A stretch of DNA of 60,579 nt from the IMG/VR virus record IMGVR_UViG_3300026269_000197, positions 1-60,579 of that record. One strand, written 5' to 3'. This document shows positions 20,801-47,924 of this stretch, one piece after another (within the stretch, counting starts at the first letter, position 1; each line of letters starts with the position of its first letter). Under the pieces are notes generated by a model. The model saw nothing but the letters and a program-made list of their open reading frames with translations. It made no database searches and was not told the DNA's origin. The DNA is from a virus (Duplodnaviria > Caudoviricetes). The translations under genes and the position numbers were made by a program.

Positions 20801-20979
20801 GTAGTGCTGATAAAGCGGTTACTTCTTCTGAAGCTGATGATGACTTTAGAGAGTATCAATATTCTGTAAGTGGTGTAAATACCTTTACTGCATTCCAATT
20901 AAAAATAGTACTAAAAGGAACTAACTCTAGTTATCCTCCAATAGTACGAGATATGAGAGGAATTGCATTGGCAATATAA
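14875..20979 (+). CDS. large virion structural protein (VrlC-like / DUF4815-type)
   Basis: FNLSPYYDDF, LFRP..AVQARELTQ.QSILQNQIE, APGAHR, ARRTYDESGDY, YTMRDIG, RFKNG..VDNF; 2034 aa. Confidence 0.85.
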   Translation: MPSPTDFNLSPYYDDFSESKSFHRILFRPAFAVQARELTQSQSILQNQIEKFGDHIFKSGAQMIPGEITYDLQYYSVKLTSFTGTTTLSDFEGLTLVGQTSAVEAKVMASDIATSTDPNTLYIKYTKTGVGNTTKDFVAGESMVATHGTLGNLTAVCTSSHIGSAASVASGTYYINGFAVGVDQQTIVLDKYTNTPSYRIGLSIAESFVTPNNDASLVDNAQGSSNANAPGAHRFKISLTLAKLALTSIEDSNFIELLRLSDGALQNKVRSSEYGVLEDTFARRTYDESGDYTVRPFDLDVREHLISGDNRGIYTSANGGDATKLALGLSPGKAYVKGYEIDKVGTEFITIDKARTFGSENGFPTKFDVGNFVNVSNVYGSPDVNFITGKVEAYKALQLKLSSPSYTAGTITANNENLVLDIGRAKSKGFEYNASTSSAISGAGAVAPQTTEIFKHFLFDIEMFSHIGITTNTAFTTGEKLTGSTSGATGVVENVSTGTTATIASSTAANPVVITMTADLDIRNGDAIKITGVTTQTELNNNTYYVQQKIGGTAKRDFQLLDSTGTLVDGTAHTGAGTGGSAQTGKVVISNVQGEFSDGETITGGTSSNTAIVKTSVIGNRGFTSYGSSDIKEITMAGTPNYTAQTELSTAYGDNQQLSGSISVSGGGQDVVGFSTKFDTELKVGDSLQFADTGGTITTREVLEIKTSSSLTLASAIGGTAVSNSIAIRRRAKLQEADKNIAIFELPYSTIKTLKTETNSGIADTLFTVRKTFVGTLTSTGDITITANTGETFLSQSERDYSVTIMSKGGSSSAGNVGDKLSTTGNQHEGDAAFTLSGSPVGRTLTLDFGANHQGHEVKIIGTLSKSAQNEKTKTLTSNATTTITTQAACEANVIGLGKADIYSLASVHMAADFSTTPTTSDTDITSRFTLDNGQRDNYYDIGRLKRVDGSLNPTGQLLITFNYFTHGNGDFFSVDSYSGQIDYENIPNYTSDTTGAEYKLSDVLDFRPRVDDASTIDSGSQNRSYDGTGASTVDVVKFGTNVTTDHEFYKGRIDKLFLTREGEFQVLKGAPDVKPQAPDKIDNAMHLYTISLPAYNLSTEDVVFETVDNRRYTMRDIGAIEKKIDRVEYYTQLSLLESAAQSLQIQDADGFDRFKNGIIVDNFKGHGIGQVTSGDYRCSVDMSKGELRPHFNQQAVEVEEIDNDGTVLVDADRTAANYIKTGDCLTLPYTETDLINQPFASKAININPFAIFSWMGTLELTPSSDEWRETQRTPELVVNSTTGAWDQLLRQGNVPNQNQIAMGTVWNEWQTNWTGAPTQVSSTRVGGRWRNGRAIQQLTNITSINQVNQSRTGITTTAIPQTVRTSMGDRVVDVAFVAFIRSRDVAFSGTRMKPNARVYPFFDNVDITSYVTPTGGSLGGNLVTDANGSVSGTFAIPDPTNNSNPRWRTGDRTFRLTSSSTNSMDAAAVDTAANAEYVARGLLNTVRDTIVSTREFSNVMTTVTDQQTVNRTSTRQVVQTVGWHDPLSQTFLTDEKGGVSLTSIDLYFSTKDANIPVTVQIRNTVNGYPGSKILPFGEVTLNPSQVNTSSDASVKTTFTFPSPVYIQDQVEYAFVVMSNSNDYQTYVARLGETAIGSSRTISEQPYAGVMFKSQNGSTWTSEPNEDIKFTIKRAEYSNVVGTVHLANKELPASALEQNPIRTTNSSAVIRVFHKNHNLHDTNSCITIAGVPAGIHNGINATDINGTYTSISNITLDSYDITTSGTANATGDIGGTAVTATQNRQFDVLNLAGLQTLAVPGTSIVPYVRTTTSKAIHGSQSPYALTTEVNKQSVTMADDIYFTQPQAVMSQPNETTRMSGKKSFYVIIEMSTTNTKLTPVIDLARNSVFCISNRLNSPTSSNTPDFVPETAASDTSGASKYIIKPVVLANNSTALDIRLTQSVRASAEVEVYYRTTSADEVRNINDINWTAFNGDGSADKAVTSSEADDDFREYQYSVSGVNTFTAFQLKIVLKGTNSSYPPIVRDMRGIALAI

Positions 20980-20983
20980 TTTA

Positions 20984-21208
20984 ATGAGTTCTACAATGAT
21001 TAAAGTAATGAATTTTGACCATTTACAAAGAGATTTAAAATCTAATGCTATTGTAAATACTAGTTCAACTGAATATGAGATATATATTGCTAGAAAACAA
21101 CAAAGAGAATTAGATAAAAATAAAATGCAAGATATGTGTAGAGAAATAAATACTTTAAAGGCAGAATTAATAGAAATTAAAAGGATGATAAAATCAAATG
21201 GCAGTTAG
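20984..21208 (+). CDS. small coiled-coil hypothetical protein
   Basis: LQRDLKSNAIVNT...EINTLKAELIEIK. Typical of the ORF following VrlC-like genes; ATG at 20984. Confidence 0.7.
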   Translation: MSSTMIKVMNFDHLQRDLKSNAIVNTSSTEYEIYIARKQQRELDKNKMQDMCREINTLKAELIEIKRMIKSNGS

Positions 21209-22499
21209 ACAAGTCGCAACGACAGATAGTTTAGATAAATTAAGAACGGAATTTAACGCTCTTGCTTTATCTGATTTTGGAGACATTGCAACACTAGATA
21301 GTTCATTGTCAGCAACTACGGTTATAGGTGCTGTAAATGAAATTAACGCAATCGCAATTGCCGCTGCTGGTTTTACACTAACAGACGGTACAAACAATCA
21401 GGCGGTTGCTTCTGGTAACACATTGACCGTAAGTACTGGTACAGGTTTAGAAGCTATCGTATCATCACCAGATACATTAACAATTAACTTGGATACTAAT
21501 TTAACAGGTTTAACAACTATAGATGTTAATACTTCTGCTGATATTGGAAATATAACTATTTCAAATGGTTCAATTATATCTTCAAGTGGTACAATAGATT
21601 TCGGAAACGAACAATTAAATACAAGTGGTGGAATAACTGCTGGTGGAACGGTAGTAGGTGCTGGTGTAACCATTAATGGTGCTTCAATGAAATTTGAAGG
21701 TGCAACTGCTAACTCTTTTGAAACTACATTAAGAGTTGATGACCCAGGACAAGATAATACAATTACTTTACCAGATAGAAGTGGAACCGTAATCACAACA
21801 GGTGATACAGCTACGGTTACTCAAACAATGATAGCTAATGACGCTGTTAGTACAGACCAAGTTGCTGACACTTCAATAACGGTTGCTAAATTAAAAGATT
21901 TTCCAACTTCAACATTAACCGTAGATACTTTAATTGCAAATAATATTACAGGTACCGCTTCACAATCAAATGCTGTTGCTATTACTGCTGACAACACAGC
22001 AAACGCAACAAGATATATTACTTTTGCTGACGCAACTTCTGGTAACCAAGGATTAAAAACAGATACAGATTTATATTACAATCCTTCAACAAATACATTA
22101 ACAACAACTGCTACAAAAGCAAACTATGCTGACTTGGCAGAAAAATATTTAACTGATAAAGAATATCCAGTAGGTACCGTCTTATGTATAGGTGGTGTTG
22201 CTGAGGTAACTTCTTGTAAACAAAATCATTGTACAAAAGTTGTAGGTGTTGTATCAGAAAAACCTGCTTTCATAATGAATGGAAGTTTAGAAGGAATGTC
22301 TGTCGCTGTTGCATTAACAGGAAGAGTTCCTTGTAGAGTATGTGGACCTGTAAGAAAAGGCGATATGATTGTTAGTTGTGAAAAAGAAGGTTGTGGAAGA
22401 GCAGAAGCAGAACCTAGAACAGGTGCATTAATTGGAAAATCTTTAGTCAATGATGACTCAACAGGAGAAAGAATTGTTGAAATAGTTGTTGGTAAGTAG
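21198..22499 (+). CDS. tail fibre-like protein with C-terminal chaperone/peptidase-like domain
   Basis: Thr/Gly-rich shaft; C-terminal ADLAEKY...VGVVSEKPAFIMN...VALTGRVPCRV..GDMIV..IGKSL. Confidence 0.7.
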   Translation: MAVRQVATTDSLDKLRTEFNALALSDFGDIATLDSSLSATTVIGAVNEINAIAIAAAGFTLTDGTNNQAVASGNTLTVSTGTGLEAIVSSPDTLTINLDTNLTGLTTIDVNTSADIGNITISNGSIISSSGTIDFGNEQLNTSGGITAGGTVVGAGVTINGASMKFEGATANSFETTLRVDDPGQDNTITLPDRSGTVITTGDTATVTQTMIANDAVSTDQVADTSITVAKLKDFPTSTLTVDTLIANNITGTASQSNAVAITADNTANATRYITFADATSGNQGLKTDTDLYYNPSTNTLTTTATKANYADLAEKYLTDKEYPVGTVLCIGGVAEVTSCKQNHCTKVVGVVSEKPAFIMNGSLEGMSVAVALTGRVPCRVCGPVRKGDMIVSCEKEGCGRAEAEPRTGALIGKSLVNDDSTGERIVEIVVGK

Positions 22500-22508
22500 G
22501 AGTATATA

Positions 22509-22988
22509 ATGGACGAACAAACTCAATTGTGGATTAAACGATTAAAAGACGAAATCCAAAATCATAACAGATACGAAGCAAGACAACTATTTTACATAGA
22601 TGATAATGGACTTGACCGAGAGGTTAAAGAACATATGACTTATGGAGAATGGTTAAGAGAATTTAATAGATTTAAAGTTATTAAGGTGGAAGGTTTAGAA
22701 GATGTCTCTTGGTTAAGAGAAGTTTTAGATGAAGTAGTAAAGAATATCACAGGTAAGACTAGACAAGATATTCATTTATTTGTGAATCAAAAACCAGGTG
22801 TTAGTTTCAAATCTCATAAAGACGACAAAGATGTTTACTTATATGTTGTAAAAGGCAAAAAGAAAGTAAATATGAATAATGAGGTTAAACCGATATATGA
22901 TGATGAAGGAATTATCATTAAACAAGGTGTTGAACACTTTGTTGAAAGTGAAGCTGATACTTGGGGGTTAAGTATTGGAGTTATATAA
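22509..22988 (+). CDS. cupin/JmjC-like oxygenase
   Basis: SFKSHKDDKDVYLYVVKGKK and GVEHFV: H-x-D...H metal triad. Confidence 0.75.
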   Translation: MDEQTQLWIKRLKDEIQNHNRYEARQLFYIDDNGLDREVKEHMTYGEWLREFNRFKVIKVEGLEDVSWLREVLDEVVKNITGKTRQDIHLFVNQKPGVSFKSHKDDKDVYLYVVKGKKKVNMNNEVKPIYDDEGIIIKQGVEHFVESEADTWGLSIGVI

Positions 22989-22990
22989 TA

Positions 22991-24025
22991 ATGAATTGGA
23001 TGTTTTATGTCAAAACAACCGAAACCTGTAATCTAAATTGTAAACATTGTTTTACTTCAGGTACATCTGGACCTAAAGTATATTGGGACACAACAAAGAT
23101 TATTAAATGGTTCAAAGCATTTCGCAAATTTAACTATCACAAAAACGACACAGCACATTTAGAATTTCACGGTGGTGAACCATTTTTGGTTCCTGTATCT
23201 GAAATGGATTATGTGTATGACGCAACTAAAGGATTGTGGGACAATCAATCTTATGGTGTAACCACTAATCTTTGTTTCAAATTAAAACAAGAACACATAG
23301 ATTTTATGAAAGGTCCTCTTGGTGGCAGATGTGGAACATCTTGGGATCCGAAGATTCGTTTTGAGAATGAAAAACAATTAAACTTATGGAGACGAAATGT
23401 TGCTACTTTAGTTGATGAAGGTATAACGGTTAAACTTTTTATATCAGTAACCAAAGATACAATAGCAATTGAGCCAATTGAATTATTGAAATGGGTAAAG
23501 GATTTAGGTGTTAAAGAAATGGCACTTGAAAGATTGACAGGTAATGGTAATGCAAACTTACATCCAGAAATATTCCCACGAAACATAGACCAAGATAAAT
23601 GGTTTTTAAAAATGCACGAGCAGATGATACAATACAATGCTAGAAAGTGGTTTGAAAATGAATTTTTTGAAACTATTTACTCAAAATTTACTGCTGGAGA
23701 CAATACGCAAGGAACTTTCTGTAGAGATTGTGAACAAAAACTATTTACACTAAACGCAACTGGCACAATAGGTGGTTGCCCTAATGCTGCTCCTGAATTT
23801 ACTTTTGGAACGCTAGATGACCCTTTGGATGGTCTTATAAATAGTCCTAAGCGATTACACAATATAGCGTGTGAAGTGGCAAGAAACCCATTGTGTTGGG
23901 AATGTCCAGTTTTCAAGTATTGTGGTGGAGATTGTCACCAATTAGGATGGCAAGGTGATATATGTGGCGCTCCGAAATCACTTATGAAACATTTGGCGCA
24001 AAATAGAAGTGAGGCAATATGGTAA
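22991..24025 (+). CDS. radical SAM protein with SPASM-like domain (rSAM-1)
   Basis: CNLNCKHC, FHGGEP, C-terminal CRDC...GCP...CWECPVFKYCGGDC...C. ATG at 22991. Confidence 0.93.
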   Translation: MNWMFYVKTTETCNLNCKHCFTSGTSGPKVYWDTTKIIKWFKAFRKFNYHKNDTAHLEFHGGEPFLVPVSEMDYVYDATKGLWDNQSYGVTTNLCFKLKQEHIDFMKGPLGGRCGTSWDPKIRFENEKQLNLWRRNVATLVDEGITVKLFISVTKDTIAIEPIELLKWVKDLGVKEMALERLTGNGNANLHPEIFPRNIDQDKWFLKMHEQMIQYNARKWFENEFFETIYSKFTAGDNTQGTFCRDCEQKLFTLNATGTIGGCPNAAPEFTFGTLDDPLDGLINSPKRLHNIACEVARNPLCWECPVFKYCGGDCHQLGWQGDICGAPKSLMKHLAQNRSEAIW

Positions 24026-24792
24026 CATTAACAAGTCCGATAACGGCACAGAACATTGTAGATAGATTTAAAGAATTGGTAACAGATGTAGCTGATACTC
24101 AAATAGTATGGGGTACAGATAGTTTACCAGGACACTCAGCGTTTGCTGCTTCAGATTTTGGTGGAGTAGTAGATGGTATGTCTTTAGTATTAACTAGTGC
24201 TAGTGGAACTTTTACAGCAAGCGAAACGGTTACAGGTTCTATTTCAGGTACGGTAGGTACGGTTGTAGATTATTCTAGTAATACATTAAAAGTTAGAAAT
24301 ATAGTAGCAGGTTCTGGACAAACAAATTTTTTACAAAATGATGTTTTAACTGGTTCTAATTCTGGTGCAAGTGGAACTATTTCAACAATGACAGAAGTAT
24401 CAGCAGTTAGTCTTGGTATATCAGGAACTAATATTGGTACGGTGGGAAGTAATATTAACGCTTTCAACATATACAATACATTAAAAACAGAAATGTTGCT
24501 TTACACTAATATTAAAAATACAAATGCTGTGGTTACAATGACAGGTGCTGGTCAACAATATTCAGATACACAAATTGCACACTTACCAACAGGACAAAGA
24601 ACAAATCCCACAATTTCTCAACCAGGTACATTAACGCAAGGACAAGTTGTTAGTTCAACAAGTATAGAGAGCTTTATGTCATCACTTGCAAGTACATATA
24701 ATACTGAAAGAGGAACAACTTATACATTGACAAAAACTATTTGCCATTCAAGTTGCCACTCTAGTTGCCACGGAAGTAGGAGCAGAAGATAA
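24019..24792 (+). CDS. putative virion protein and rSAM substrate with C-terminal (CHxS)3 tail
   Basis: Thr/Ser/Gly-rich body with baseplate-type repeats (FTASETVTGSISG, FLQNDVLTGSNSGASG); ends ICHSSCHSSCHGSRSRR. The function is inferred. Confidence 0.7.
   Translation: MVTLTSPITAQNIVDRFKELVTDVADTQIVWGTDSLPGHSAFAASDFGGVVDGMSLVLTSASGTFTASETVTGSISGTVGTVVDYSSNTLKVRNIVAGSGQTNFLQNDVLTGSNSGASGTISTMTEVSAVSLGISGTNIGTVGSNINAFNIYNTLKTEMLLYTNIKNTNAVVTMTGAGQQYSDTQIAHLPTGQRTNPTISQPGTLTQGQVVSSTSIESFMSSLASTYNTERGTTYTLTKTICHSSCHSSCHGSRSRR
24742..24777 (+). repeat. 3 x 12-bp coding repeat encoding CHSS-CHSS-CHGS
   Basis: TGCCATTCAAGT TGCCACTCTAGT TGCCACGGAAGT. Synonymous divergence between units implies selection at the protein level. 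Confidence 0.9.
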
Positions 24793-25484
24793 TGATTGAA
24801 ACTATAGTACCAATTGATTTAAAGAATTTAAAAAAATATTTTGAAGATAAATCTGAAAGTTATATGATAGATTATGAAAAGAGTAAATTAAAAGGTGCTC
24901 AATTCTTAACTTATATAAGCAATTTAGATATACCTTGCGATATATTAAACTATGATGATGAATTACTATTATCATATTTTGAAACACAAATGTTAGTAAG
25001 TATACCGATGTTAGAAAGAGTTGCTATGCAAGTTCTTTTTGAACATAAAGGTTTAGAGAAAAATGTACTTCACGGTGCTTTTATTTCTCAAAATTTAGAG
25101 ATAATAGAAGAATGGGCAAACAAATTAGAAAGTCTGCCTTTATACAATATGTCTATTGTAGGAGAAGGTGCTTTTAAAGATTTTGTTGAGACTTATCCTA
25201 AAGATGAGACTAATGATGTAAAAGGTATTAATTTTGTTAGTCTATTGAAACATACAGATTTTTATTCTTATTATAATAAAACTAACGAAAAGAATGTTAA
25301 GTATTATACTAAATACTTTACAGAATATATGTTTAAAGGCAAAAGTCTATTTGATTATTGGGGTGTAAAAGAAAACCCTATGTTTTTAATGACTTGGGCA
25401 GTTGCTGAAGGAAAGTTTGATACTAAAAAATATAACGAAGCTAAAAAAGCTGATATAGGAAGATTAAATGCTACACCTGTTTAA
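24792..25484 (+). CDS. hypothetical protein in the rSAM cluster
   Basis: Translationally coupled (TAATG) to 24019..24792; no motif recognised. Confidence 0.75.
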   Translation: MIETIVPIDLKNLKKYFEDKSESYMIDYEKSKLKGAQFLTYISNLDIPCDILNYDDELLLSYFETQMLVSIPMLERVAMQVLFEHKGLEKNVLHGAFISQNLEIIEEWANKLESLPLYNMSIVGEGAFKDFVETYPKDETNDVKGINFVSLLKHTDFYSYYNKTNEKNVKYYTKYFTEYMFKGKSLFDYWGVKENPMFLMTWAVAEGKFDTKKYNEAKKADIGRLNATPV

Positions 25485-26583
25485 TAAAGTTTATTTACAA
25501 TTTGATGACTCAATAGATTGTCATACAAATAGATATGTTATTTCCGAAGAAAAAGGAAATCCAATGCTATCAGAATTAGGTAGTGCTTATAGAGGCACAC
25601 TAATTAACTATGCTAAAAATAGAAATGAAATGCAAGGTAAGTTTGACGACTTAACTGGTTTCTTTGAAGATGTATGTACTAAACAAAAATCATTAAATAG
25701 TAAAGTTGTTATATATTGCGACACACAAGCATTTTTAGAATTATCTGTTATCTGGTTAAAAACTATCTTACCTTTTGGTGATAGTGATAGTATTGTTAAA
25801 TACCTAGACATACATTTACACAACGAAAGAATTATTACAAATACACAATGTCAACCAACACATATTTTAGACTTAACTAAACTGAATGCAGGTTTAGGAG
25901 ATGTTAAAGGATATGCTGATGTTTTACCTACTTTAGAATTAGATAGAATTAAAGCGCTTAATTTAAATTTCTCAATTGAATTATTGCTTGGAGAGTATTT
26001 TGCTGGTGCTGATACACACGAAGACAATTTACTTTCCTCTTATCATATGTTCTTAAAAAGATTTTATAAAGAGATATTAACAGATGTTAGAGAAGATACA
26101 TTATTAAATCTTTTAAATAAATCGCAACAAACTGCTGTAGGTTATTCTGATAGTGATGTTGTAATAAATGCTGATAACCCTTTTGAAGGAATTACAGAAT
26201 TGGCTGCCTTTGCTGATACGGATGTCTTTACGGCGAAACCTGTTGCAAATGCTGGATATGTGAATACAATAACTATAGATAATTTGTCAAGTGAAAAACA
26301 AACTGCATTAAAAACTATAATTAACACAATACAAACACTACAAAATATTCCAAATCCAGATTACTCAATGGCAAATTTTGATAAAGCGTGTCAGACATCT
26401 TTATCTAAAAGTGATTTTGATACAATAATTAATGAAGCGGTGGCGAATAGTCCATCTTTGGCGTATATTCCAAGATTTGATATTGGTAATGTTAATTACT
26501 CTTTTATTCAATATCTACTTTCTTTAAAGAAAGATAACGATTCAAGTACGCTAGGGAAATACAGACTATTCGCAAACTCGTAG
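25468..26583 (+). CDS. hypothetical protein in the rSAM cluster
   Basis: 371-aa ORF overlapping its upstream neighbour; no motif recognised. Confidence 0.75.
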   Translation: MLHLFNKVYLQFDDSIDCHTNRYVISEEKGNPMLSELGSAYRGTLINYAKNRNEMQGKFDDLTGFFEDVCTKQKSLNSKVVIYCDTQAFLELSVIWLKTILPFGDSDSIVKYLDIHLHNERIITNTQCQPTHILDLTKLNAGLGDVKGYADVLPTLELDRIKALNLNFSIELLLGEYFAGADTHEDNLLSSYHMFLKRFYKEILTDVREDTLLNLLNKSQQTAVGYSDSDVVINADNPFEGITELAAFADTDVFTAKPVANAGYVNTITIDNLSSEKQTALKTIINTIQTLQNIPNPDYSMANFDKACQTSLSKSDFDTIINEAVANSPSLAYIPRFDIGNVNYSFIQYLLSLKKDNDSSTLGKYRLFANS

Positions 26584-26591
26584 GAGTTTAA

Positions 26592-27644
26592 ATGCGTGAG
26601 TTTTTAATAGACCCCAAAAGAGACCCCGAGCAGGAGTACACAATTCATTTATTTGAATTTTGTAATTTAAGATGTGCTTTCTGTTGGCAAAACCACGAAG
26701 ACACGGTTGGAATAGATACCGTAATCAATAAATTAATTCCCGTAGAAAAATTTATCAAACACGAATTGATGATGAGTGTTGTATTTAATATTATGGGTGG
26801 CGAAGTCTTTGCACCTGCCATCTACAATAAAGAATTAAATCACGCTTATAAAACTTTATCAAAAGGCATACAAAAGATATGTGAACGATATGATAAGAAA
26901 GTTAGAATTAATTGGGTTACTAATTTGATTATGAGTGATGAAGGTAATGAGTTATTAAGAGATTTATTAAGTTGGTCTGAACACGAAGGTATTGAAGCAA
27001 CAATTACTACAAGTTATGATCCTAGAGGAAGATTTAGTAAAACAGATTTAGAACGATTTAAACAACAAGTAATCTATTGGGGAAAAGAAATAAAATCTTT
27101 TTCAATGTTAATAACTAAACCAATGATAAAGTATCATTTAGAACAAGGTGACCCATACTTTAAACACTTATATGACCAAGGTTATGAAATTTATTTTGAT
27201 TACTATACACCAGACCAACACGCAAAATTTTTTATGCCAAGTGATACAGAATTATTAAAGTTCTTTAAGTATATAATAGATAACTATCCAAATTGTTCTC
27301 CTGTAAGAGAATGGATATTTAAGAAAAGAAATTATGCTAGTTGTAGAACAAGTAAATTGATATTACAAGATAATACATTATGTCAATGTGGTAATCTTGT
27401 ACAGGACCCAAAAGATTTAGTAATGTATAGTTCTCCTATAAAGAAAAAAGACAACTCAATTATTGAAAATAAATTTTTAGAAAAATATAATTGTGCTAGT
27501 TGTGAATTTTTAGATAGATGTACTTTAGGTTGCTTTATGAACCACGATTATAAATGGAGGGAAGAATTGGATGAATGTGTTTACAAACTTACGCACAGAT
27601 ATATTGAAAATGTACGAGTACAAAGAAACTTTATCGCAACCTGA
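26592..27644 (+). CDS. radical SAM protein with SPASM-like domain (rSAM-2)
   Basis: CNLRCAFC, MGGE, C-terminal C...CQC...CASCEFLDRCTLGC...C. Confidence 0.92.
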   Translation: MREFLIDPKRDPEQEYTIHLFEFCNLRCAFCWQNHEDTVGIDTVINKLIPVEKFIKHELMMSVVFNIMGGEVFAPAIYNKELNHAYKTLSKGIQKICERYDKKVRINWVTNLIMSDEGNELLRDLLSWSEHEGIEATITTSYDPRGRFSKTDLERFKQQVIYWGKEIKSFSMLITKPMIKYHLEQGDPYFKHLYDQGYEIYFDYYTPDQHAKFFMPSDTELLKFFKYIIDNYPNCSPVREWIFKKRNYASCRTSKLILQDNTLCQCGNLVQDPKDLVMYSSPIKKKDNSIIENKFLEKYNCASCEFLDRCTLGCFMNHDYKWREELDECVYKLTHRYIENVRVQRNFIAT

Positions 27645-28206
27645 TATTTCAAAACTTAAAATTAACAATACAGACATTGAAATACAATTAGATAAATTTC
27701 CAGTTCAGAAACCATTTATACCTAGAATAGATGGTAGACAAGCACATTTATTTTTATGGTTAGGTAAGAAAGAAGATGATATTGAAACTTACAATCTAGC
27801 AGAAAAGAATATAGGTGAAAAGATGTGGGTACATAATAAAACACCTAATACTTTTATAAAAGGTGTAGGTATGTTTCATATCTATGATGAGTATGTTATA
27901 GTAGGGTCTTTAAAGTATCCTGGTTATATGCGAAGTAAAAGTCCAGTAGAAAGAAGAAGATTGATAAGAACAATGTGGTGTGAAACAATTAATATATTTA
28001 AAGATAGAAGAATATTATGTCCTACAGGAACTTATTTTGATTATTTACATTTATCTATGAATCAAATGAAGGCACAAAAAGAACCTTATCATAGAGAGAT
28101 AATGCAACAATTTGGTTTTGAAAAAGATGTTATATATGACCACTTTTGGATTAGAGATAAAGATACAAAAACTGGTTTAAATTGGATTGAATTATATGGA
28201 GATTAA
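27610..28206 (+). CDS. hypothetical protein in the rSAM cluster
   Basis: ORF track 27571..28206; the likely start is MYEYKE at 27610. Confidence 0.7.
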   Translation: MYEYKETLSQPDISKLKINNTDIEIQLDKFPVQKPFIPRIDGRQAHLFLWLGKKEDDIETYNLAEKNIGEKMWVHNKTPNTFIKGVGMFHIYDEYVIVGSLKYPGYMRSKSPVERRRLIRTMWCETINIFKDRRILCPTGTYFDYLHLSMNQMKAQKEPYHREIMQQFGFEKDVIYDHFWIRDKDTKTGLNWIELYGD

Positions 28207-28774
28207 ATTTACAGATACGATAAATGTTTTTGACGATTTCTTAACTGATAAAGTGTTAATTAATAAGTTAAAAAAAGAAAGTAAAATTGATACTACAATT
28301 AAAGGACAAGATACATTTAATTTTACGCCTTGTCAAAAAGAATTTTCTAAAATTGCAAATGCAACATTGATAAACTATTGTCTATCAAATAATATAGATT
28401 ATAATAATTTAGAGTTATCTAATTTTCAAAAAGGTAGATTAAAGAAGTATGATAAGTCTAGTGTGACCAATCATTTATATGAACCACACCACGACCAAGT
28501 TGAAGGTGCTTTTATTTCTGCAATCTATTATATAGATAGTGATTATACACCTGAAAAATGGGTAGGTGGTGAATTAAGTATATACAAAAATTTAACCTTT
28601 GCTGAATACCCAAATAACACCATAAACATAGAACCTATACCTAATAGACTGATAATGTTTCCTGGGTTTCTAGTACATAGAGTTAAACCATACTTCGGAG
28701 AAAATCCTAGAACATCTTTAGTATTAGGATGGGAAGTAAAAGACCAACCAAAAACTGAACCGATATGGATTTAA
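28187..28774 (+). CDS. 2OG-Fe(II) oxygenase (prolyl-hydroxylase-like)
   Basis: PHHD...SAIYY...GGEL...PNRLIMFP..LVHRV...R. Confidence 0.88.
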   Translation: MNYMEIKFTDTINVFDDFLTDKVLINKLKKESKIDTTIKGQDTFNFTPCQKEFSKIANATLINYCLSNNIDYNNLELSNFQKGRLKKYDKSSVTNHLYEPHHDQVEGAFISAIYYIDSDYTPEKWVGGELSIYKNLTFAEYPNNTINIEPIPNRLIMFPGFLVHRVKPYFGENPRTSLVLGWEVKDQPKTEPIWI

Positions 28775-29853
28775 TAATTAAACCAACTGAATTATGTAAT
28801 TTCAAATGTACATTTTGTTCAAGTACTCAACTAACAAAAGAGAAAAAGAATTGGTTGAAACACGAACAAATATTTGAGTTCTTAACAAGATTTCCTCATA
28901 CTAAAACTATTATAGTAAATGGTGGGGATCCTTTGATGATGGAACCTGAATACTATTGGAAGATTATTAGATGGTTAGATGAAAGAGATTATGCAACATC
29001 AATTTCTCTAACAACAAACTTATGGCCGTTCTTAAAGAAACCTAGTTTGTGGGTAGACTTATTTAATGATAAAAGAATAGGAGTAACCACTTCTTTTCAA
29101 TATGGTGGTGGAAGATTAAAAGGAGACTTTACAGAATTTACGGAAGACGACTTTTGGCAATGTTCAGACGCAATGTTAAAGTATTGTGATTATAGACCAG
29201 ACTTTATTTCTGTTATAACAAAAGAAAACAAACACAATGCAATTAAAAATGTTGAGTTAGCAAAGTTTATGTCAGAAGATAGAGAACCAGAAGGTACTTT
29301 ACATAATTTATATAGAGAAGAAAAAACTGGTGTTGAATGTAAATTAAATTATGCAATGGCAAGTGGTGACCAAAAAGAACCATTTTTATTATCAGATATA
29401 TATGAGATATATACTAAAATATATAATCAAGGTTTAGCACCTTGGGAATTTAATACGAAACAAATGATGTTGACTATTAAAGATTGTAGTACTACTTGTC
29501 CTTTAAGTAGAAAGTGTGATGAAGGTATAAGATGTTTACAACCCGATGGAGACTATTATAGTTGTGGTGCTTTTGGTGATGATAGAGATAAAGAAATAGA
29601 TTTTAAAAGAGAAATGAAAGGTGAGTTTTTTACACCTTTACAAGATGACCTTTCATTAAATAGTATGAAAAAATCTTGTTATATTTGTCCAATGTTTAAT
29701 ATATGTAATGGTTGTAGAAAGACAATAAAAGATTATCAACACGCTGGAGTAATAGAGAAACATTGTGAGAAGATGAAACGAATAGGACCTGATATACTAA
29801 AAGCAAATGGCAGTACTTTACAAATGACACCATATATAAGTGAGGCACAATGA
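28765..29853 (+). CDS. radical SAM protein with SPASM domain (rSAM-3)
   Basis: IKPTELCNFKCTFC, NGGDP, CP...C...DGDYYSC...CYICPMFNICNGC...C. Confidence 0.93.
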   Translation: MDLIIKPTELCNFKCTFCSSTQLTKEKKNWLKHEQIFEFLTRFPHTKTIIVNGGDPLMMEPEYYWKIIRWLDERDYATSISLTTNLWPFLKKPSLWVDLFNDKRIGVTTSFQYGGGRLKGDFTEFTEDDFWQCSDAMLKYCDYRPDFISVITKENKHNAIKNVELAKFMSEDREPEGTLHNLYREEKTGVECKLNYAMASGDQKEPFLLSDIYEIYTKIYNQGLAPWEFNTKQMMLTIKDCSTTCPLSRKCDEGIRCLQPDGDYYSCGAFGDDRDKEIDFKREMKGEFFTPLQDDLSLNSMKKSCYICPMFNICNGCRKTIKDYQHAGVIEKHCEKMKRIGPDILKANGSTLQMTPYISEAQ

Positions 29854-30371
29854 TAAAAACTAGTAATAATATAGAAAATGTTTTAATCAATGGAGTTTGG
29901 CCTACAGCAGACCCATTGCCGTTTAGATTTTTTGAAGGTGTTGAAATACCATTTAAAAGTTTAGAAGGTTATAAAGTAGCAGTACATACTCCAGAAGTTG
30001 AGAATGCTCTCAAAATGTGCCATACTTATTTGGGTAATAAATATATTAAACAATTGTCTAATAAGTATAACTTATATGGTCAACCAGAAATAGTTAACGG
30101 AGTAGACAAAGGTTCGTTGAATTGGCATAATGATAATAAAGAAGGAGCAAATATTGCTGCTATTATCTATTTCACTTCAGCAAGTAATCCTGATACAGGA
30201 GGACAATTAGAAGTAAGAAGTAAGGACAACAAAAGTTTATCTGCATACTTGTACCCAGGCAAGACAGATGTAGTATTATTAAACCACGCTAAACAATGGG
30301 AACATAGAGTTGGAGAATTTAAACCAATAGGTGTTGAACGAATAGCAGGATATTTTGACTATAATATATGA
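29850..30371 (+). CDS. 2OG-Fe(II) oxygenase
   Basis: WHND...IIYF...GGQL...WEHRV...R. Confidence 0.82.
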   Translation: MIKTSNNIENVLINGVWPTADPLPFRFFEGVEIPFKSLEGYKVAVHTPEVENALKMCHTYLGNKYIKQLSNKYNLYGQPEIVNGVDKGSLNWHNDNKEGANIAAIIYFTSASNPDTGGQLEVRSKDNKSLSAYLYPGKTDVVLLNHAKQWEHRVGEFKPIGVERIAGYFDYNI

Positions 30372-30472
30372 GTGAATTAGAATTTTTTAAATTTATACAA
30401 CAAATGGAAAAAGAAGTATACGGTATTACTCCATTCTTTGAGGAATTAGATTATGACGAAACAGAAAATTAA
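30368..30472 (+). CDS. small acidic peptide (34 aa)
   Basis: Hand-translated MSELEFFKFIQQMEKEVYGITPFFEELDYDETEN. ATGA overlap with the oxygenase stop; fills the gap to rSAM-4. Confidence 0.5.
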   Translation: MSELEFFKFIQQMEKEVYGITPFFEELDYDETEN

Positions 30473-31427
30473 TTTATCAATTAATCCATCTTATCATTGT
30501 AATTTTAGATGTTCTTGGTGTTATCTTACACCTAAACAATTAGGTGACACTAAAACTATAAGTGATGAAAGATTAAATGAATTACTAGCAGAAGTTTCTG
30601 CTCATAGAGAAATTAATCATATTGATTTATATGGTGGTGAGATTGGTCTATTAAAGAAAGAACAATTAAAGAACATCACAGAAGTTATTAGATTATATTA
30701 TAAAGATAAAATCAATATCAATACAAACCTTTCCGTATTAAGAGAAGAATTTTTTTATCCTGAATATTATTTAAGTGTATCTTGGGATTTAGAAACTAGA
30801 CAAGACTTTATTAAAGTTAGAGAGAATATGGCGAAACTGCCAGTTGACTTTTCTCTATTATGTTTAGCAACAAAAGAAGTAATGCACCATTCCGTAGAAC
30901 ACTTTTGGTCTATGATTAATAGAATTAACTTTGAATCTGAAAAAGCAAATCGTGGTAAATCTCATTTAAAAAGTGTAGAAGTAAAACCTTATAGTGCTAA
31001 TCAAGCAAATGACCAAGAAGTAACCCACGCACAATACGAAGACTATATTTTAAAATTACTAGAAATGGAAAGTTCATTGAAAAAAGGTAAATATGAATTT
31101 GTAAATAAAAAGAAAGTAATTGCTTCTTTAAATAAAGAATATAACGCATTTAGCGATGACCATTTATATATTACACCAAACGGTAAGTTCGCTGTATTAG
31201 AATTTGATAAAGATAATAGAGAATACTTTTTAGAATTAAATAGTTTTGAAGAATATGAAAATTGGTGTAAAAAAGAAAAAGAGAAAACAATATCACCTAT
31301 ATGTAAGAGTTGTGAATATCTAGGAGGTTGTTTAACAGAACATTATCAATATGTCAAAGATTTAGATAATGGTTGTAATGGATATAGGTATCTATTGGAT
31401 ACTTATGAAATGAGATATGGCAAATAG
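30453..31427 (+). CDS. radical SAM protein (rSAM-4) with reduced SPASM-like tail
   Basis: CNFRCSWC, YGGE, C-terminal CKSCEYLGGC...C. Confidence 0.92.
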   Translation: MTKQKINLSINPSYHCNFRCSWCYLTPKQLGDTKTISDERLNELLAEVSAHREINHIDLYGGEIGLLKKEQLKNITEVIRLYYKDKININTNLSVLREEFFYPEYYLSVSWDLETRQDFIKVRENMAKLPVDFSLLCLATKEVMHHSVEHFWSMINRINFESEKANRGKSHLKSVEVKPYSANQANDQEVTHAQYEDYILKLLEMESSLKKGKYEFVNKKKVIASLNKEYNAFSDDHLYITPNGKFAVLEFDKDNREYFLELNSFEEYENWCKKEKEKTISPICKSCEYLGGCLTEHYQYVKDLDNGCNGYRYLLDTYEMRYGK

Positions 31428-32211
31428 AGCATTTTGTATAGGTAATGGAAGAAGTAGAAAAGGTTTTAATTTAAACTCATTAAAATCTCGTGGAGTAATA
31501 TTAGGTTGTAATAATCTATATAAAGATTTTGCGCCAGATATATTAGTTTCAGTTGACCATCCACTTATGCACAACATTTATAATTCTGGTTATTGTTATA
31601 CTTCTAAATGTTATTTTAGAGATTGGATAAAAATACCACAAGAGAATTATGAAAATATGTTGGCAGGTTTCTTTCCTGATTATAGACATATAAGAGCAAT
31701 AAGAAAGTCAGGTCATTTAGTAGAAAACAATAGAGCAGGTTCAAATGAATTTGTATTGCACGGATATAATGACAAACAAACTGGAAAGAATATGGTGACG
31801 GTAAGTTGGTGTACAAAAGATTATGTTTATAATATGACGGATATAATAAAAGATCCAGAGCAAACAATGTGGTCTGCTGGTCCTTCAAGTGGTTATATTG
31901 CTTGTAAGACTATTAATAATATGAAAGAAGTATATTTAATTGGACACGATTTATATAGTTCTAATAAATCATTTAATAATGTCTATGCAGGACAACCTTA
32001 CTATGTATCAGATACACACCCTAGTAATTATTATGTACAGAATTGGATAATGCAATGGAAGAAGTTGTTTAGATGGTATCATCATATTAAGTTTTATAAA
32101 GTCAATAGAAGAAATTTTTTAAATATAAATGTTCCTGAATGGAATGATTGTAAGAATTTGGAGTATATAAGCTATGAAAGAATGGAAAATCAAACAAGAA
32201 GTCTACCATAG
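31417..32211 (+). CDS. glycosyltransferase-like protein (sialyltransferase/Maf-like GNGxS fold)
   Basis: CIGNGRSR, GCN.LY....PDILVSVD, SAG, VYLIGHD. The family assignment is tentative. Confidence 0.55.
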   Translation: MANRAFCIGNGRSRKGFNLNSLKSRGVILGCNNLYKDFAPDILVSVDHPLMHNIYNSGYCYTSKCYFRDWIKIPQENYENMLAGFFPDYRHIRAIRKSGHLVENNRAGSNEFVLHGYNDKQTGKNMVTVSWCTKDYVYNMTDIIKDPEQTMWSAGPSSGYIACKTINNMKEVYLIGHDLYSSNKSFNNVYAGQPYYVSDTHPSNYYVQNWIMQWKKLFRWYHHIKFYKVNRRNFLNINVPEWNDCKNLEYISYERMENQTRSLP

Positions 32212-32611
32212 ACTAAATCCTACTCACTCGGATATGTTAATGGATAAAGAAATATCCTTAATATGGGATGAACAGGATATAGTACGATATGCCATTAAAC
32301 ATTGGCACGAAAGAGTAGATAAGTTTATATATCCAGCAAAGAGTTATTGTGTAGCAATATGTTATGCAAAGTGGATAGAGAGAGATTATGGAGATAATTT
32401 TTGGGACTTATTAAATGACCCAAAATTATTGTATAGTAATGACCCTTACTTTGAAGTATACAAAGATAAGAAACACATATACAATCCTATTATATCAACT
32501 TTCCCTGAAGATGAAACTCAAGGAATGATACCAGATATAAGGGATTGGTATGAAAAAGAAATAAAGTACGATACTGGAATTAGTATAAATAGTAAATATA
32601 AGGAGAAATAA
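32174..32611 (+). CDS. hypothetical protein
   Basis: ORF overlapping the previous gene; aromatic-rich. Confidence 0.7.
   Translation: MKEWKIKQEVYHRLNPTHSDMLMDKEISLIWDEQDIVRYAIKHWHERVDKFIYPAKSYCVAICYAKWIERDYGDNFWDLLNDPKLLYSNDPYFEVYKDKKHIYNPIISTFPEDETQGMIPDIRDWYEKEIKYDTGISINSKYKEK
32584..32591 (+). promoter_or_regulatory. T4-type late promoter
   Basis: TATAAATA upstream of 32614; marks the end of the rSAM cluster. Confidence 0.75.
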
Positions 32612-47922: not shown

Positions 47923-47924
47923 AG

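Follow-up and report, generated by a model that had tools for sequence, protein, structure and literature searches.

Several described systems lie close to the locus considered here. Dynobactin and darobactin maturases and the triceptide enzymes form aromatic-to-Cβ links across three residues, His included. The anaerobic sulfatase-maturing enzyme (anSME) has the substrate motif Cys/Ser-x-Pro/Ala-x-Arg. QhpD is a SPASM enzyme that forms several Cys thioethers in QhpC, the small subunit of quinohemoprotein amine dehydrogenase; QhpC, a periplasmic protein that is leader-processed, remains within a larger assembly, and an oxygenase step follows. The bacterial HXS antiphage system consists of the effector HxsA, the radical SAM (rSAM) enzymes HxsB and HxsC, and HxsD. 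According to the available part of its description, the rSAM enzymes act on an HxS-repeat effector, which once mature stops DNA entry in the periplasm; modification falls on the unit SHRSS, and basic residues are important (PMC13128918). In pelagimyophages, the portion of the report available describes rSAM "gene cassettes" in the host recognition cluster after VrlC, a cluster also rich in sugar genes (PMC7029224). The gene set described below, which also occurs in jumbo phages and predatory bacteria, was previously unstudied.

The window (the whole 60,579-nt stretch of DNA that was analysed) derives from a marine T4-like phage, and its 2034-aa protein and baseplate genes fit the pelagimyophage type. 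Sited among tail-fibre genes at 22509-32611 are 14 coupled ORFs, all on the + strand, with adjacent ORFs overlapping by 1-74 nt or lying 2-8 nt apart. These include four rSAM paralogs, two 2OG oxygenases, a cupin-like HxD..H protein and a 257-aa protein with a tail-like tag at its C-terminus. An earlier sequence-only reading had given the same gene order and coordinates, had placed the genes between fibre genes and had seen no protease or exporter. The ORF list proved identical, family searches of neighbouring ORFs returned fibre or baseplate genes on the flanks, and Pfam, NCBIfam and PHROG profile searches of the cluster matched no protease or exporter family. The features are as follows.

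21198-22499, + strand: tail-fibre-like protein, 433 aa; matches phrog_19602 (tail fibre), phrog_22593 and phrog_6427
22509-22988, + strand: cupin-fold protein, 159 aa; Pfam Cupin_2 at 24.5 bits, below the 27.2 cut-off; HxD...H triad
22961-24025, + strand: rSAM1, radical SAM/SPASM enzyme; phrog_1802, E 2.7e-65; TIGR04085 (SPASM) at 28.3 against a cut-off of 27
23836-23843, + strand: T4-type late-promoter-like motif TATAAATA, inside rSAM1 and 183 nt upstream of the tagged gene
24019-24792, + strand: tagged protein, 257 aa; predicted alpha/beta fold with a beta-barrel insert and a disordered C-terminal tail
24742-24789, + strand: tag, residues 242-257, CHSSCHSSCHGSRSRR-COOH; proposed modification site
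24792-25484, + strand: orphan core protein, 230 aa; phrog_20767, E 1.2e-60
25468-26583, + strand: orphan core protein, 371 aa; conserved MxHLFxKxY N-terminus
26592-27644, + strand: rSAM2, radical SAM/SPASM paralog; phrog_1802, E 5.7e-41
27571-28206, + strand: accessory ORF, 211 aa; in 23/82 loci only
28187-28774, + strand: 2OG-Fe(II) oxygenase a; PF13640 at 35.9 bits against a cut-off of 27
28765-29853, + strand: rSAM3, radical SAM/SPASM paralog; phrog_1802, E 2.1e-54
29850-30371, + strand: 2OG-Fe(II) oxygenase b; PF13640 at 29.7 bits against a cut-off of 27
30368-30472, + strand: doubtful ORF, 34 aa
30453-31427, + strand: rSAM4, radical SAM paralog; phrog_1802, E 1.3e-34; Pfam Radical_SAM at 31.4 against a cut-off of 29.5
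31417-32211, + strand: accessory ORF, 264 aa; phrog_30607 (function unknown) is the sole match
32174-32611, + strand: orphan core protein, 145 aa; phrog_20737, E 3e-38

The tag reads as three C-H-x-[S/N] units followed by R-x-R-R-COOH, giving three Cys-His pairs and an Arg-rich end. An alignment of 63 tagged sequences, whose identity elsewhere is 21-95%, leaves nine of the 16 tag residues unchanged throughout (C242, H243, C246, H247, C250, S253, R254, R256 and R257), and the tail is the sole invariant part of this very diverse family. It was found at the C-terminus of 94/96 homologues among word-search matches, whilst the strict end CHxxCHxxCHxxRxRR is carried by all 67 tagged ORFs of 63 loci and by 130 of 142 further 50%-cluster representatives; among these further representatives the Ser positions may also hold Asn, Ala or Gln. 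Family members are 126-300 aa long, and 847 clusters at 50% identity match the family profile at E≤0.001. The AlphaFold2 model of the 257-aa protein (mean pLDDT 91.3, pTM 0.83, tail blocks 66 and 52) predicts an exposed, low-confidence end on a confident globular fold. No fold match to this model was found in the PDB at E≤0.001; in BFVD the model matches family members, and its insert matches cyanophage structural and fibre proteins. Neither a signal peptide nor a peptidoglycan-binding domain was seen. Some phages carry two tagged paralogs whose bodies differ and whose tail is the same, an arrangement typical of substrates rather than helpers.

All four rSAM enzymes match phrog_1802 (E 2.7e-65 to 1.3e-34) and contain CxxxCxxC. 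Alignments of 30-31 orthologues per enzyme bear out the earlier claim of this motif together with C-terminal Cys in all four. rSAM1 has invariant C23, C27 and C30 plus eight further Cys, rSAM3 has invariant C11, C15 and C18 plus nine, and rSAM2 has conserved C24, C28 and C31 plus seven; in rSAM4, C16, C20 and C23 are conserved with a reduced C-terminal cluster of four (C284, C287, C293 and C308). rSAM1 has no N-terminal recognition domain; it shares 7 nt with the tagged gene, to which it is translationally coupled. rSAM3 is the most conserved paralog, with 53-59% identity to its jumbo-phage and Bdellovibrionota orthologues. At most loci rSAM4 is followed by the 145-aa gene, either directly or, in the nearest relatives of the window, after the 264-aa ORF. 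Each of the four orthogroups has T4-like phage, jumbo-phage and bacterial members (the jumbo-phage member for rSAM4 being that of locus L002 only), and the paralogs are therefore old and not redundant.

Over its full length, rSAM1 best matches DynA among NCBIfam models (37.7 bits), with anSME and TIGR04083 also found, and its best full-length match among solved structures is anSME 4k37 (E 2.1e-5). For rSAM3, too, DynA is the best match: the alignment again spans the whole protein (residues 4-340 with positions 4-345) and scores 39.8 bits, the cut-off being 450. A Bdellovibrionota rSAM1-like paralog scored 69.7 bits to DynA and 68.3 bits to anSME. For rSAM2 and rSAM4, matches to known families are confined to the N-terminal cluster-binding stretch. 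It had been suggested that grouping with nucleotide or cofactor enzymes would tell against a protein-modifying role; matches to MoaA, QueE and NrdG were weak and covered only some 80-100 N-terminal cluster-binding residues, and the closest full-length matches of rSAM1 and rSAM3 are SPASM enzymes that modify proteins or peptides (DynA, anSME). With the exception of the SPASM domain model, every window enzyme scored below 40 bits against curated NCBIfam families with cut-offs of 180-650, so that function is not transferable by homology.

Three putative oxygenases accompany these enzymes, and catalytic residues are kept in all seven. The cupin-fold protein is likely an Fe(II) oxygenase: at least 90% of 29 sequences keep H103, D105 and H143. 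Its gene is present in 55/82 loci and precedes rSAM1 in jumbo phages too. Conserved residues are H101, D103, H164 and R175 in 2OG oxygenase a, and H93, D95, H152 and R164 in 2OG oxygenase b. The 2OG oxygenases vary in number and position among loci (a in 22/82, b in 47/82), and because of this variability hydroxylation may not be essential.

The three orphan proteins are widespread. The 230-aa protein is found in 64/82 loci, including jumbo phages, and the 371-aa and 145-aa proteins in 54/82 loci each; all three also occur in Bdellovibrionota, and the N-terminal motif of the 371-aa protein is common to RSF1 ORF072 and Bdellovibrionota homologues. No consistent Pfam match emerged among 31 members of the 230-aa family or 26 of the 371-aa family. 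The 145-aa protein is predicted to be helical (AlphaFold2 pLDDT 85.4), has many conserved aromatic and acidic residues, and its model found no PDB fold match at E≤0.001. The 211-aa and 264-aa ORFs are accessory. The former has no NCBIfam, Pfam or PHROG match. The 264-aa ORF occurs in 12/82 loci, closest relatives only; with no Pfam or NCBIfam match, it gives no family support to its former label "GT-like". The 34-aa peptide earlier counted as a member does exist as an ORF but was found only in two related loci (L003 and L055) and is not core; it has no Cys, and its acidic end is similar to that of a 189-aa ORF which L090 has in the equivalent place. Upstream, the 433-aa tail-fibre-like protein is a conserved neighbour, with a homologue beside the cluster in 59/82 loci, Atu_ph07 included. 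Its Cys residues are not conserved, so that nothing obvious marks it as a second substrate.

The core set (cupin, rSAM1-4, tagged protein and the three orphan proteins) recurs in marine T4-like phages, in jumbo phages of Ralstonia, Burkholderia, Agrobacterium and Pseudomonas, RSF1 and Atu_ph07 among them, and on chromosomes of the predatory Bdellovibrionota. A tagged ORF was found in 63 of the 66 loci L001-L066, the other three having less than 500 nt of room, and it lies within 150 nt of the rSAM1 end in 58/63. One clade retains the enzymes with a neighbouring tag in 0/16 loci; whole-record searches of this clade revealed two tandem tagged genes on 3/5 contigs. The synteny survey proposed earlier for the tailed protein thus places it with the enzymes in every locus having room, or elsewhere on the contig. 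These gene neighbourhoods support a coherent, conserved pathway around the protein with the CHxS-type tail rather than a chance grouping.

The T4-type late-promoter-like motif TATAAATA has 12 matches in the window, all on the + strand, of which 11 are directly upstream of ORF starts; none lies between 13367 and 23836. The cluster had been described as having no internal late promoter, but the match at 23836-23843 lies within it, and the motif is found ≤400 nt upstream of the tagged gene in 29/31 related loci, with eleven different offsets between -14 and -198. The available part of the Atu_ph07 paper gives CDS 170-215 as one cluster of virion proteins, and the tagged gene of Atu_ph07 is number 170, assuming that paper and RefSeq share gene numbering. 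The late promoter, the fibre-type insert and this numbering suggest, indirectly, that the tagged protein is probably virion-associated. With no protease or exporter beside the enzymes, the product is more probably a retained protein than a secreted peptide.

A nearly invariant tail beside a conserved enzyme set, recurring together in jumbo phages and predators, indicates that the set probably matures the tail chemically. We put at roughly 60% the probability that this is a multi-step radical and oxidative maturation of the tail on a late, probably virion-associated protein. Gene content, synteny, tail conservation, catalytic motifs and the late-promoter motif are observed, whereas we infer the substrate role of the tail, the kind of bond, the sequence of steps and the place on the virion. 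Weighing against this reading are the enzyme scores below the curated cut-offs, the N-terminal-only matches of rSAM2 and rSAM4, the variability of the 2OG oxygenases and the 16 loci in which the enzymes lack a tagged neighbour. The substrate would be the 257-aa protein, a predicted folded domain with its last 16 residues exposed. rSAM1, closest to DynA and anSME, free of a peptide-recognition domain and coupled to the gene of the proposed substrate, would be the first enzyme to work on the tail, and the ancient paralogs rSAM2, rSAM3 and rSAM4 would perform further, non-redundant radical steps. The cupin and the two 2OG enzymes, as Fe(II) oxygenases, may add hydroxyl groups. The likeliest chemistry would be intramolecular cross-linking of the tail, either from His to the Cβ at i+2, as in three-residue cyclophanes and dynobactin, or through Cys thioethers; cyclophane-type aromatic-to-Cβ links that include His would fit the H-x-[S/N] of the tail. 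The 230-, 371- and 145-aa orphans could be subunits for recognition or chaperoning. The matured protein would appear late in infection and would probably be part of, or act on, the host-recognising baseplate/fibre apparatus. Of the sequence-only reading, the conserved pathway around a tailed protein stands; the "candidate novel system" is coherent but not unique, being shared by jumbo phages and Bdellovibrionota, the latter also showing that it is not confined to phages. The parallel drawn with the Hxs system does not extend to membership, and the claim of no internal late promoter falls.

The tail might instead be an unmodified Cys3His3 end that binds a metal or cluster, with the protein serving as metal or Fe-S donor, redox partner or metal-stabilised fibre tip, and the rSAMs acting on fibre proteins or sugar. 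Three Cys and three His could bind metal without covalent change, and only the Cys-His pairs and Arg are strictly invariant, the Ser positions being more permissive. Fibre genes on the flanks, sugar-type genes beside the cluster in L071 and L080, and the many sugar genes of the pelagimyophage host-recognition cluster as far as described (PMC7029224) would offer other targets. We nevertheless consider this unlikely, given that the flanking fibre protein does not conserve its Cys, that tagged gene and rSAM1 are coupled in 58/63 loci, that paralogs with differing bodies share a tail as substrates do, and that the SPASM types nearest rSAM1 and rSAM3 act on peptide chains. Four rSAMs and three oxygenases are many oxidative enzymes for one short tail, which would suit a sacrificial scaffold whose tail is cross-linked, oxidised and finally cleaved to release a small cofactor- or metallophore-like molecule, in the style of PQQ or mycofactocin, the latter likewise modified at a C-terminal site. 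Such a scaffold is, however, quite improbable: no protease, peptidase or exporter was matched in the cluster, the conserved and, in the model, confidently folded body with its fibre-type insert would be wasteful if disposable, and the tagged gene has its own late promoter, like its neighbours in the structural region.

A phage counterpart or antagonist of the HXS system, mimicking or countering the effector during genome delivery, could be read from the three H-x-[S/N] units with their basic end, from the weak matches of rSAM1 to HxsB and rSAM3 to HxsC, and from carriers (phages and Bdellovibrionota) that must cross a Gram-negative envelope. Those matches, however, stand at 35.9 bits against 370 for HxsB and 31.7 against 267.9 for HxsC, no better than the DynA or anSME scores, HxsA and HxsD gave no match, PADLOC matches only a generic viperin-type N-terminal region, and neither signal peptide nor peptidoglycan-binding domain was seen; Hxs membership is accordingly unsupported and we hold this reading to be very unlikely. 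Least probable of all is that the enzymes modify DNA or nucleotides (thymidine hypermodification, queuosine-type) and have no connection with the tagged protein. Phage rSAM enzymes are known from DNA hypermodification and there are weak matches to MoaA, QueE and NrdG, but these span only the first ~80-100 residues, the cluster lies in the baseplate/fibre region with no late-promoter motif at 13367-23836, the kinase, glycosylase or transferase partners usual in such pathways are missing from it, and it is too regularly linked to the tagged gene.

Maturation of the tail, the preferred reading, can be set against the known systems. The cluster shares with the pelagimyophage rSAM cassettes its position after VrlC among tail fibres; the available part of that paper mentions the cassettes only, without substrate, tail motif, distribution or function (PMC7029224). 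QhpD and QhpC offer a parallel in that SPASM thioethers are made in a retained protein before an oxygenase acts; QhpC is leader-processed, whereas the phage cluster has no protease. anSME (4k37), the only solved structure aligned with rSAM1 over its full length, acts on a folded protein without a leader, as proposed here. The last tag unit, C-H-G-S-R, resembles its motif, although the third position is Gly, Ser or Asn rather than Pro/Ala, rSAM1 scores 35.5 bits against a cut-off of 349, and the tagged protein has no sulfatase fold. The compact architecture without a recognition domain is that of DynA/DarE, XyeB, FxsB, YhhB and GrrM, and DynA is the best full-length NCBIfam match of both rSAM1 and rSAM3; scores to these families are nevertheless 20-40 bits against cut-offs of 310-650, and DynA and the triceptide enzymes work on short leader-core peptides, later cut and exported, whereas the proposed phage substrate is a folded protein of 126-300 aa. 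Judged by analogy, the nearest counterpart is the bacterial HXS antiphage system. As far as the available description of HXS goes (PMC13128918), the phage system differs in having a Cys before each His, in a tail that is very C-terminal and nearly invariant, in at least four rSAM paralogs (against two) with up to three oxygenases, in having no signal peptide or peptidoglycan-binding domain, and in being encoded by phages and predatory bacteria, among fibre genes. On the same description the two would be alike in that several rSAMs mature a whole protein with repeated H-x-S units in a basic context, in that a small accessory protein partners one enzyme, and in a role in phage-host conflict at the envelope.

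The cluster at 22509-32611 was re-derived as the same 14 ORFs that the sequence-only reading had called, all on the + strand and overlapping or separated by gaps of no more than 8 nt. These are listed below with the upstream fibre gene and the number of related loci in which each was found. The loci comprise 80 viral contigs found with rSAM1, the first of four radical SAM paralogs, as the query, plus two annotated jumbo phages. Genes were placed with a BLAST-based map, and since many contigs are cut the counts are lower bounds.

Genes of the cluster and the upstream fibre gene, with the number of the 82 loci containing each (lower bounds).
21198-22499: 433-aa fibre protein, 59/82 loci
22509-22988, + strand: cupin, 55/82 loci
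22961-24025, + strand: radical SAM paralog rSAM1 (query)
24019-24792, + strand: tagged protein (257 aa; its last 16 residues, 242-257, form the tail), 62/82 loci
24792-25484, + strand: 230-aa protein, 64/82 loci
25468-26583, + strand: 371-aa protein, 54/82 loci
26592-27644, + strand: radical SAM paralog rSAM2, 64/82 loci
28187-28774, + strand: 2OG oxygenase a, 22/82 loci
28765-29853, + strand: radical SAM paralog rSAM3, 69/82 loci
29850-30371, + strand: 2OG oxygenase b, 47/82 loci
30368-30472, + strand: 34-aa ORF, 2/82 loci
30453-31427, + strand: radical SAM paralog rSAM4, 63/82 loci
32174-32611, + strand: 145-aa protein, 54/82 loci
Within 22509-32611, + strand: 211-aa ORF, 23/82 loci
Within 22509-32611, + strand: 264-aa ORF, 12/82 loci

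PHROG matches in the window, a 60,579-base IMG/VR virus record of 37% estimated completeness, include T4-type baseplate wedge proteins, a 2034-aa phrog_358 protein, tail fibres and the large terminase. This fits the layout of pelagimyophages, in which the region after the VrlC baseplate protein is described as the 'host recognition cluster' and rSAM 'cassettes' have been remarked on (PMC7029224). The window is AT-rich overall, with a G+C content of 0.29-0.30 in the cluster (0.286-0.303 across 24001-32000) against 0.34-0.38 in the structural flanks, consistent with a cassette that has a separate history. Three very large ORFs (1072, 1362 and 731 aa) lie among the fibre genes at 40583-50579 and match phrog_4219, with RCC1-like 'regulator of chromosome condensation' repeats.

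Within the cluster, both 2OG oxygenases belong to the 2OG-Fe(II) superfamily (PF13640, 35.9 bits for a and 29.7 for b, cut-off 27), and their HxD...H...R residues are conserved in alignments of orthologues. The cupin, a candidate cupin/JmjC-like oxygenase, scores just under the PF07883 cut-off (24.5 bits against 27.2), with H103-x-D105...H143 conserved in 29 sequences. The label 'GT-like', previously attached to the 264-aa ORF, found no support in family searches. For the 230-aa protein the best score in an ESM Atlas search was 0.75, with no family; the 145-aa model had no match in the PDB at E<=0.001 (Foldseek); and when every member of the 230-aa and 371-aa families was scanned with Pfam, no family was common to more than two members.

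The C-terminus of the 257-aa protein reads CHSSCHSSCHGSRSRR. When residues 210-257 served as query in a word-based search, 94 of the 96 proteins returned had this 16-residue tail at their end; the two exceptions finish in the sequence of the following gene (the 230-aa protein). C242, H243, C246, H247, C250, S253, R254, R256 and R257 are invariant in a 63-member alignment in which identity to the window protein drops to 21%. A profile search of 1.84 billion cluster representatives returned 847 at E<=0.001, 119 of them at E<=1e-30. CHxxCHxxCHxxRxRR forms the end of 130 of the 142 newly returned representatives, the remaining 12 being truncated or carrying small variants. In these 130 sequences the pattern is C-H-x-[S/N] three times, then R-x-R-R-COOH; the Cys, His and Arg residues are without variation, and the 'Ser' positions hold Ser in 103-122 sequences and Asn, Ala, Asp or Gln in the others. 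The last unit, C-H-G-S-R, is faintly like the sulfatase motif C/S-x-P/A-x-R. Its third position is G, S or N in 110/130 sequences and Ala in just 2, so that the sulfatase Pro/Ala is not kept.

The body that bears this tail is predicted with confidence to be a folded protein, ranging from 126 to 300 aa across the family. AlphaFold2, run with the 63-sequence alignment, gave a model with a mean pLDDT of 91.3 and a pTM of 0.83, consisting of an alpha/beta body with a beta-barrel insert of ~70 residues. The last strand (235-241) leads into the tail, where confidence falls to 66 and then 52. No fold in the PDB matched at E<=0.001 (Foldseek). In BFVD the whole model matched two uncharacterised family members and Atu_ph07 gp170. 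The insert alone matched cyanophage proteins named structural protein, fibre protein, Gp14 neck protein and baseplate wedge gp53, over 77-90 columns at an rmsd of 2-4 Å. The insert may be a mobile binding module. The insert (window 24170-24400, residues ~50-130) is missing from the common 188-aa family members. In loci L024-L027 (~11043-12411) the tagged protein is apparently split into a 308-aa ORF with the conserved N-terminus and a Gly-rich end, then a 140-aa ORF with the C-terminal half and the tag. A predicted complex of rSAM1 with the tagged protein scored 0.02, which gives no answer and was weighed neither way.

The tailed protein had been expected to co-occur with the enzymes, and it does. 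Among the 66 loci L001-L066, all but three contain a tagged ORF, and those three leave less than 500 nt of room for one. The ORF starts within 150 nt of the end of rSAM1 in 58/63 loci, and four loci have two tagged genes. The other 16 loci (L067-L082) share the order cupin, rSAM1, rSAM3, rSAM4, 145-aa protein, rSAM2, with no tagged gene within 10 kb in any of the 16. Five full records from this group were searched; on three, two tandem tagged genes (126-138 aa) were found elsewhere, and the other two are short fragments. A second, divergent operon on the minus strand adjoins the main cluster in two of these loci (L071, 15020-19429; L080, 15494-20558) and has four more ORFs with the radical SAM motif, joined in L080 by a distant homologue of the 230-aa protein. 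In the tree these extra ORFs fall outside the four main orthogroups, near additional paralogs from jumbo phages and Bdellovibrionota.

CxxxCxxC is present near the N-terminus of all four rSAMs, as had been read from the sequence, and is invariant among 30-31 orthologues of each; all four match phrog_1802 (E 2.7e-65 to 1.3e-34). The C-terminal Cys cluster that had been ascribed to every one of them proved uneven, with 8, 7, 9 and 4 conserved extra Cys for rSAM1 to rSAM4 in the same orthologue sets. With four, rSAM4 therefore retains only a reduced, twitch-like set. The CxxxCxxC motif and the Cys-rich C-terminal domain together place the enzymes in the radical SAM superfamily with a SPASM/twitch extension. 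Pfam PF04055 (cut-off 29.5) is passed by rSAM3 (30.2) and rSAM4 (31.4), with rSAM1 (23.7) and rSAM2 (23.8) below it, and SPASM model TIGR04085 (Cx2Cx5Cx3C; cut-off 27) is passed by rSAM1 (28.3), with rSAM3 (19.7) below. Since all four begin directly at the cluster motif, they have no N-terminal peptide-recognition domain; many RiPP maturases carry one, and anSME and DynA do not. When 70 rSAM-motif ORFs, taken from the window and from 13 loci, were placed in a tree, four orthogroups were resolved, with extra paralog groups in jumbo phages and bacteria. Each orthogroup contains members from T4-like phages, jumbo phages and Bdellovibrionota (the jumbo-phage member of rSAM4 coming from locus L002 only), so the four rSAMs are ancient and non-redundant.

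None of the four reached the cut-off of a curated equivalog family in NCBIfam. The top models for rSAM1 were DynA (full length), TIGR04083, HxsB (N-terminal two thirds) and anSME, and the top model for rSAM3 was DynA, again at full length. At 37.7 and 39.8 bits against a DynA cut-off of 450 (NF041298), rSAM1 and rSAM3 lie outside the dynobactin-type family, as they do for DarE (NF038005; 19.9 and 22.1 bits, cut-off 650). The same holds for rSAM1 with anSME (TIGR03942; 35.5 bits, cut-off 349.45) and HxsB (TIGR03978; 35.9 bits, cut-off 370), for rSAM3 and rSAM4 with HxsC (TIGR03977; 31.7 and 18.8 bits, cut-off 267.9), and for the triceptide maturases XyeB, FxsB, YhhB, GrrM and AmcB (all <=26.6 bits, cut-offs 310-450). 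A rSAM1-like paralog from Bdellovibrionota scored 69.7 bits to DynA and 68.3 to anSME. The alternative that these are nucleotide or cofactor enzymes draws on matches to MoaA, QueE, NrdG and viperin, all confined to the first ~80-100 residues, and PADLOC likewise returned generic viperin-type N-terminal matches only. Searched against the PDB, the rSAM1 profile aligned an anSME structure over its full length (E 2.1e-5); the rSAM3 profile matched only the N-terminus of MoaA and was set aside. By the test set in the sequence-only reading, under which clustering with nucleotide or cofactor enzymes would count against it, the peptide- or protein-modifying reading stands, though the placement is remote.

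Other substrates within the region fared poorly. The 34-aa ORF, which the sequence-only reading had counted among the parts of the cluster, is kept only in two near relatives; with no Cys and only these two loci, it was ruled out as a precursor peptide. It ends in ...EELDYDETEN, and the 189-aa ORF that takes its place in L090 (16033-16602), a locus from the prokaryote genome scan, ends in ...EEFDYDAAED; the 34-aa ORF may be the leftover of a lost gene. The 433-aa fibre protein was ruled out as a second substrate because its Cys are not conserved. Nor is this a classical RiPP pathway, in which a short leader-core precursor goes with a leader protease and a gene for export or immunity: the proposed precursor here is folded, and Pfam, NCBIfam and PHROG searches matched no protease or transporter/exporter family in the cluster.

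The cluster had been thought to have no internal late promoter, which did not hold. A T4-type late-promoter motif, TATAAATA, occurs at 23836-23843, within rSAM1 and 183 nt before the tagged gene. The window contains 12 copies, all on the + strand, and the 11 others, at 1238, 6581, 11689, 13367, 32584, 33234, 36011, 36020, 40552, 47925 and 54173, lie just upstream of ORF starts. The total equals the chance expectation, although the strand and positions are unlike chance, and the copies look like a late-promoter map of the structural region. Since none lies between 13367 and 23836, the cupin and rSAM1 share one promoter-free stretch with the upstream baseplate and fibre genes. The motif was found within 400 nt upstream of the tagged gene in 29/31 related loci, at eleven offsets from -14 to -198, and the tagged gene therefore appears to have its own late promoter, an arrangement that suits a stoichiometric product more than a catalyst.

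DNA near-identical to the window (at least half of sampled words) was found in 17 marine or seawater runs, 4 of which are possibly from the source sample. None of the runs holding such DNA is listed on record as RNA. Three labelled RNA-Seq, a label that is a guess, gave short contigs with 0-2 differences at 25337-25854, 28757-29039 and 31797-32001, which are no proof of transcription or of gene ranking. Two contig joints in run X5, skipping ~4.6 kb from the end of rSAM2 to the 264-aa ORF (27476-32103/32128), have sides of only 21 letters and were set aside as unreliable; if real, they would represent a variant without rSAM3 and rSAM4.

Beyond these phages, tblastn found rSAM1 and the 230-aa gene together in 15 cultured jumbo phage records. 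These are Ralstonia phages RSL2, RSF1, RsoM3USA and the FLC4 phages, Burkholderia phages FLC6, FLC8 and SURPRISE13, Agrobacterium phage Atu_ph07, Sinorhizobium phage Phosso and Pseudomonas phage pPa_SNUABM_DT01. The ORF after rSAM1 ends in CHSSCHSSCHGSRGRR in RSF1 and in CHSSCHASCHNSRSRR in Atu_ph07, while the remainder of each protein differs. In the phage collection, neither the 10-kb region (megablast) nor the tagged protein (tblastn) found a match.

A scan of one genome per prokaryotic species returned eight loci. Four are Bdellovibrionota MAGs with a tagged gene, a 230-aa homologue and three to seven rSAM-motif genes; three of the four sit on contigs of 178-300 kb. Two have housekeeping neighbours, namely an E1 dehydrogenase and YceI (L093) and a phosphonate ABC transporter (L097). 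Homologues of the 371-aa and 145-aa proteins were detected in only part of the Bdellovibrionota loci. No signal peptide was found in the Bdellovibrionota homologues of the tagged protein, which would fit cytoplasmic maturation by oxygen-sensitive enzymes. Beside the cluster in L097, a Pseudobdellovibrio MAG, the ORF at 17582-18628 fuses a type IV pilin N-methylation motif/N-terminus to a Peptidase_S74 fibre-chaperone domain; its predicted product is a fibre-like protein in a predatory bacterium. L090 (32.5 kb), assigned to a Rickettsiales MAG, is syntenic with the window gene for gene, in a stretch that runs from the 2034-aa protein across the whole cluster to the fibre genes. This contig is of phage origin but was binned into a bacterial genome, which hints at a SAR11-type host. 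The sequence-only reading had understated how general the finding is: the system is widespread among phages and also occurs in predatory bacteria.

In Atu_ph07, most virion proteins are reported as encoded in three clusters, CDS 31-76, 170-215 and 284-329 (PMC6102473). RefSeq numbers the tagged gene 170, and the enzyme genes downstream of it (165-169) lie outside these clusters. Together with the late-promoter motif and the likeness of the insert, the CDS number is an indirect sign that the tagged protein may be virion-associated. In the available text of other jumbo-phage papers the enzymes appear only in gene lists, among 'other genes' (PMC11898562, PMC5468394).

The gene-level observation from which the earlier reading set out was confirmed, and its interpretation is supported in part. 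Our overall reading is a multi-enzyme radical and oxidative maturation of a protein tail, to which we assign a probability of about 0.6. The tail would be the shared substrate: rSAM1 would act on it first, the rSAM2-4 orthogroups would add later radical steps, the oxygenases would hydroxylate, and the tail Cys could form thioethers or hold metal. Triceptides and dynobactin contain three-residue aromatic-to-C-beta cross-links, a spacing that the H-x-[S/N] units of the tail would fit, and the orphan core proteins (230, 371 and 145 aa) might, by analogy only, act in recognition or as chaperones. Any one specific bond type is unlikely to be the right one. More speculative still, and rather improbable, is that a dedicated factory of four to eight rSAMs, common to phages of Gram-negative bacteria and to predatory Bdellovibrionota, turns the invariant Cys-His-rich, Arg-tipped tail into a rigid, cross-linked, possibly metal-holding 'warhead' on the baseplate/fibre apparatus, engaging or crossing the prey envelope. 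Such a device might be a receptor ligand, a metallophore mimic or a DNA escort through the periplasm that opposes HXS-type defence.

Radical SAM/SPASM enzymes are known to mature peptides that are secreted, a few enzymes and one antiphage effector, the last a very recent case. The literature searched, a collection with few subscription journals, gave no account of what this phage system does and no virion-module protein matured this way. The system is large, with 847 tagged-protein clusters (50% identity) and a presence in abundant marine phages, cultured jumbo phages and predatory bacteria, and it offers a handle in the nearly invariant 16-residue tail and four orthologous enzymes with new specificities. 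It could bring to light new chemistry for cross-linking proteins, as well as a step in host recognition or entry by phages that has gone unrecognised, and could explain the rSAM 'cassettes' of the pelagimyophage host-recognition cluster. Were the 'warhead' reading true, it would be the first radical-SAM-matured structural virion component, and would tie phage infection to bacterial predation at the level of mechanism.

Among known systems, the bacterial His-Xaa-Ser (HXS) antiphage system comes closest in its logic; in it HxsB and HxsC mature the HxS-repeat effector HxsA, with +8 Da on an SHRSS motif, and HxsD partners HxsC (PMC13128918). The cluster is not an HXS system, because every Hxs model was far out of reach; neither the tagged protein nor any of the orphan proteins had an NCBIfam match at E<=0.01, so neither HxsA nor HxsD was recognised among them. 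The likeness lies in the phage tail, which bears three H-x-[S/N] units. We place the system among the pathways in which radical SAM enzymes mature proteins, as a variant with a chemistry that we infer.
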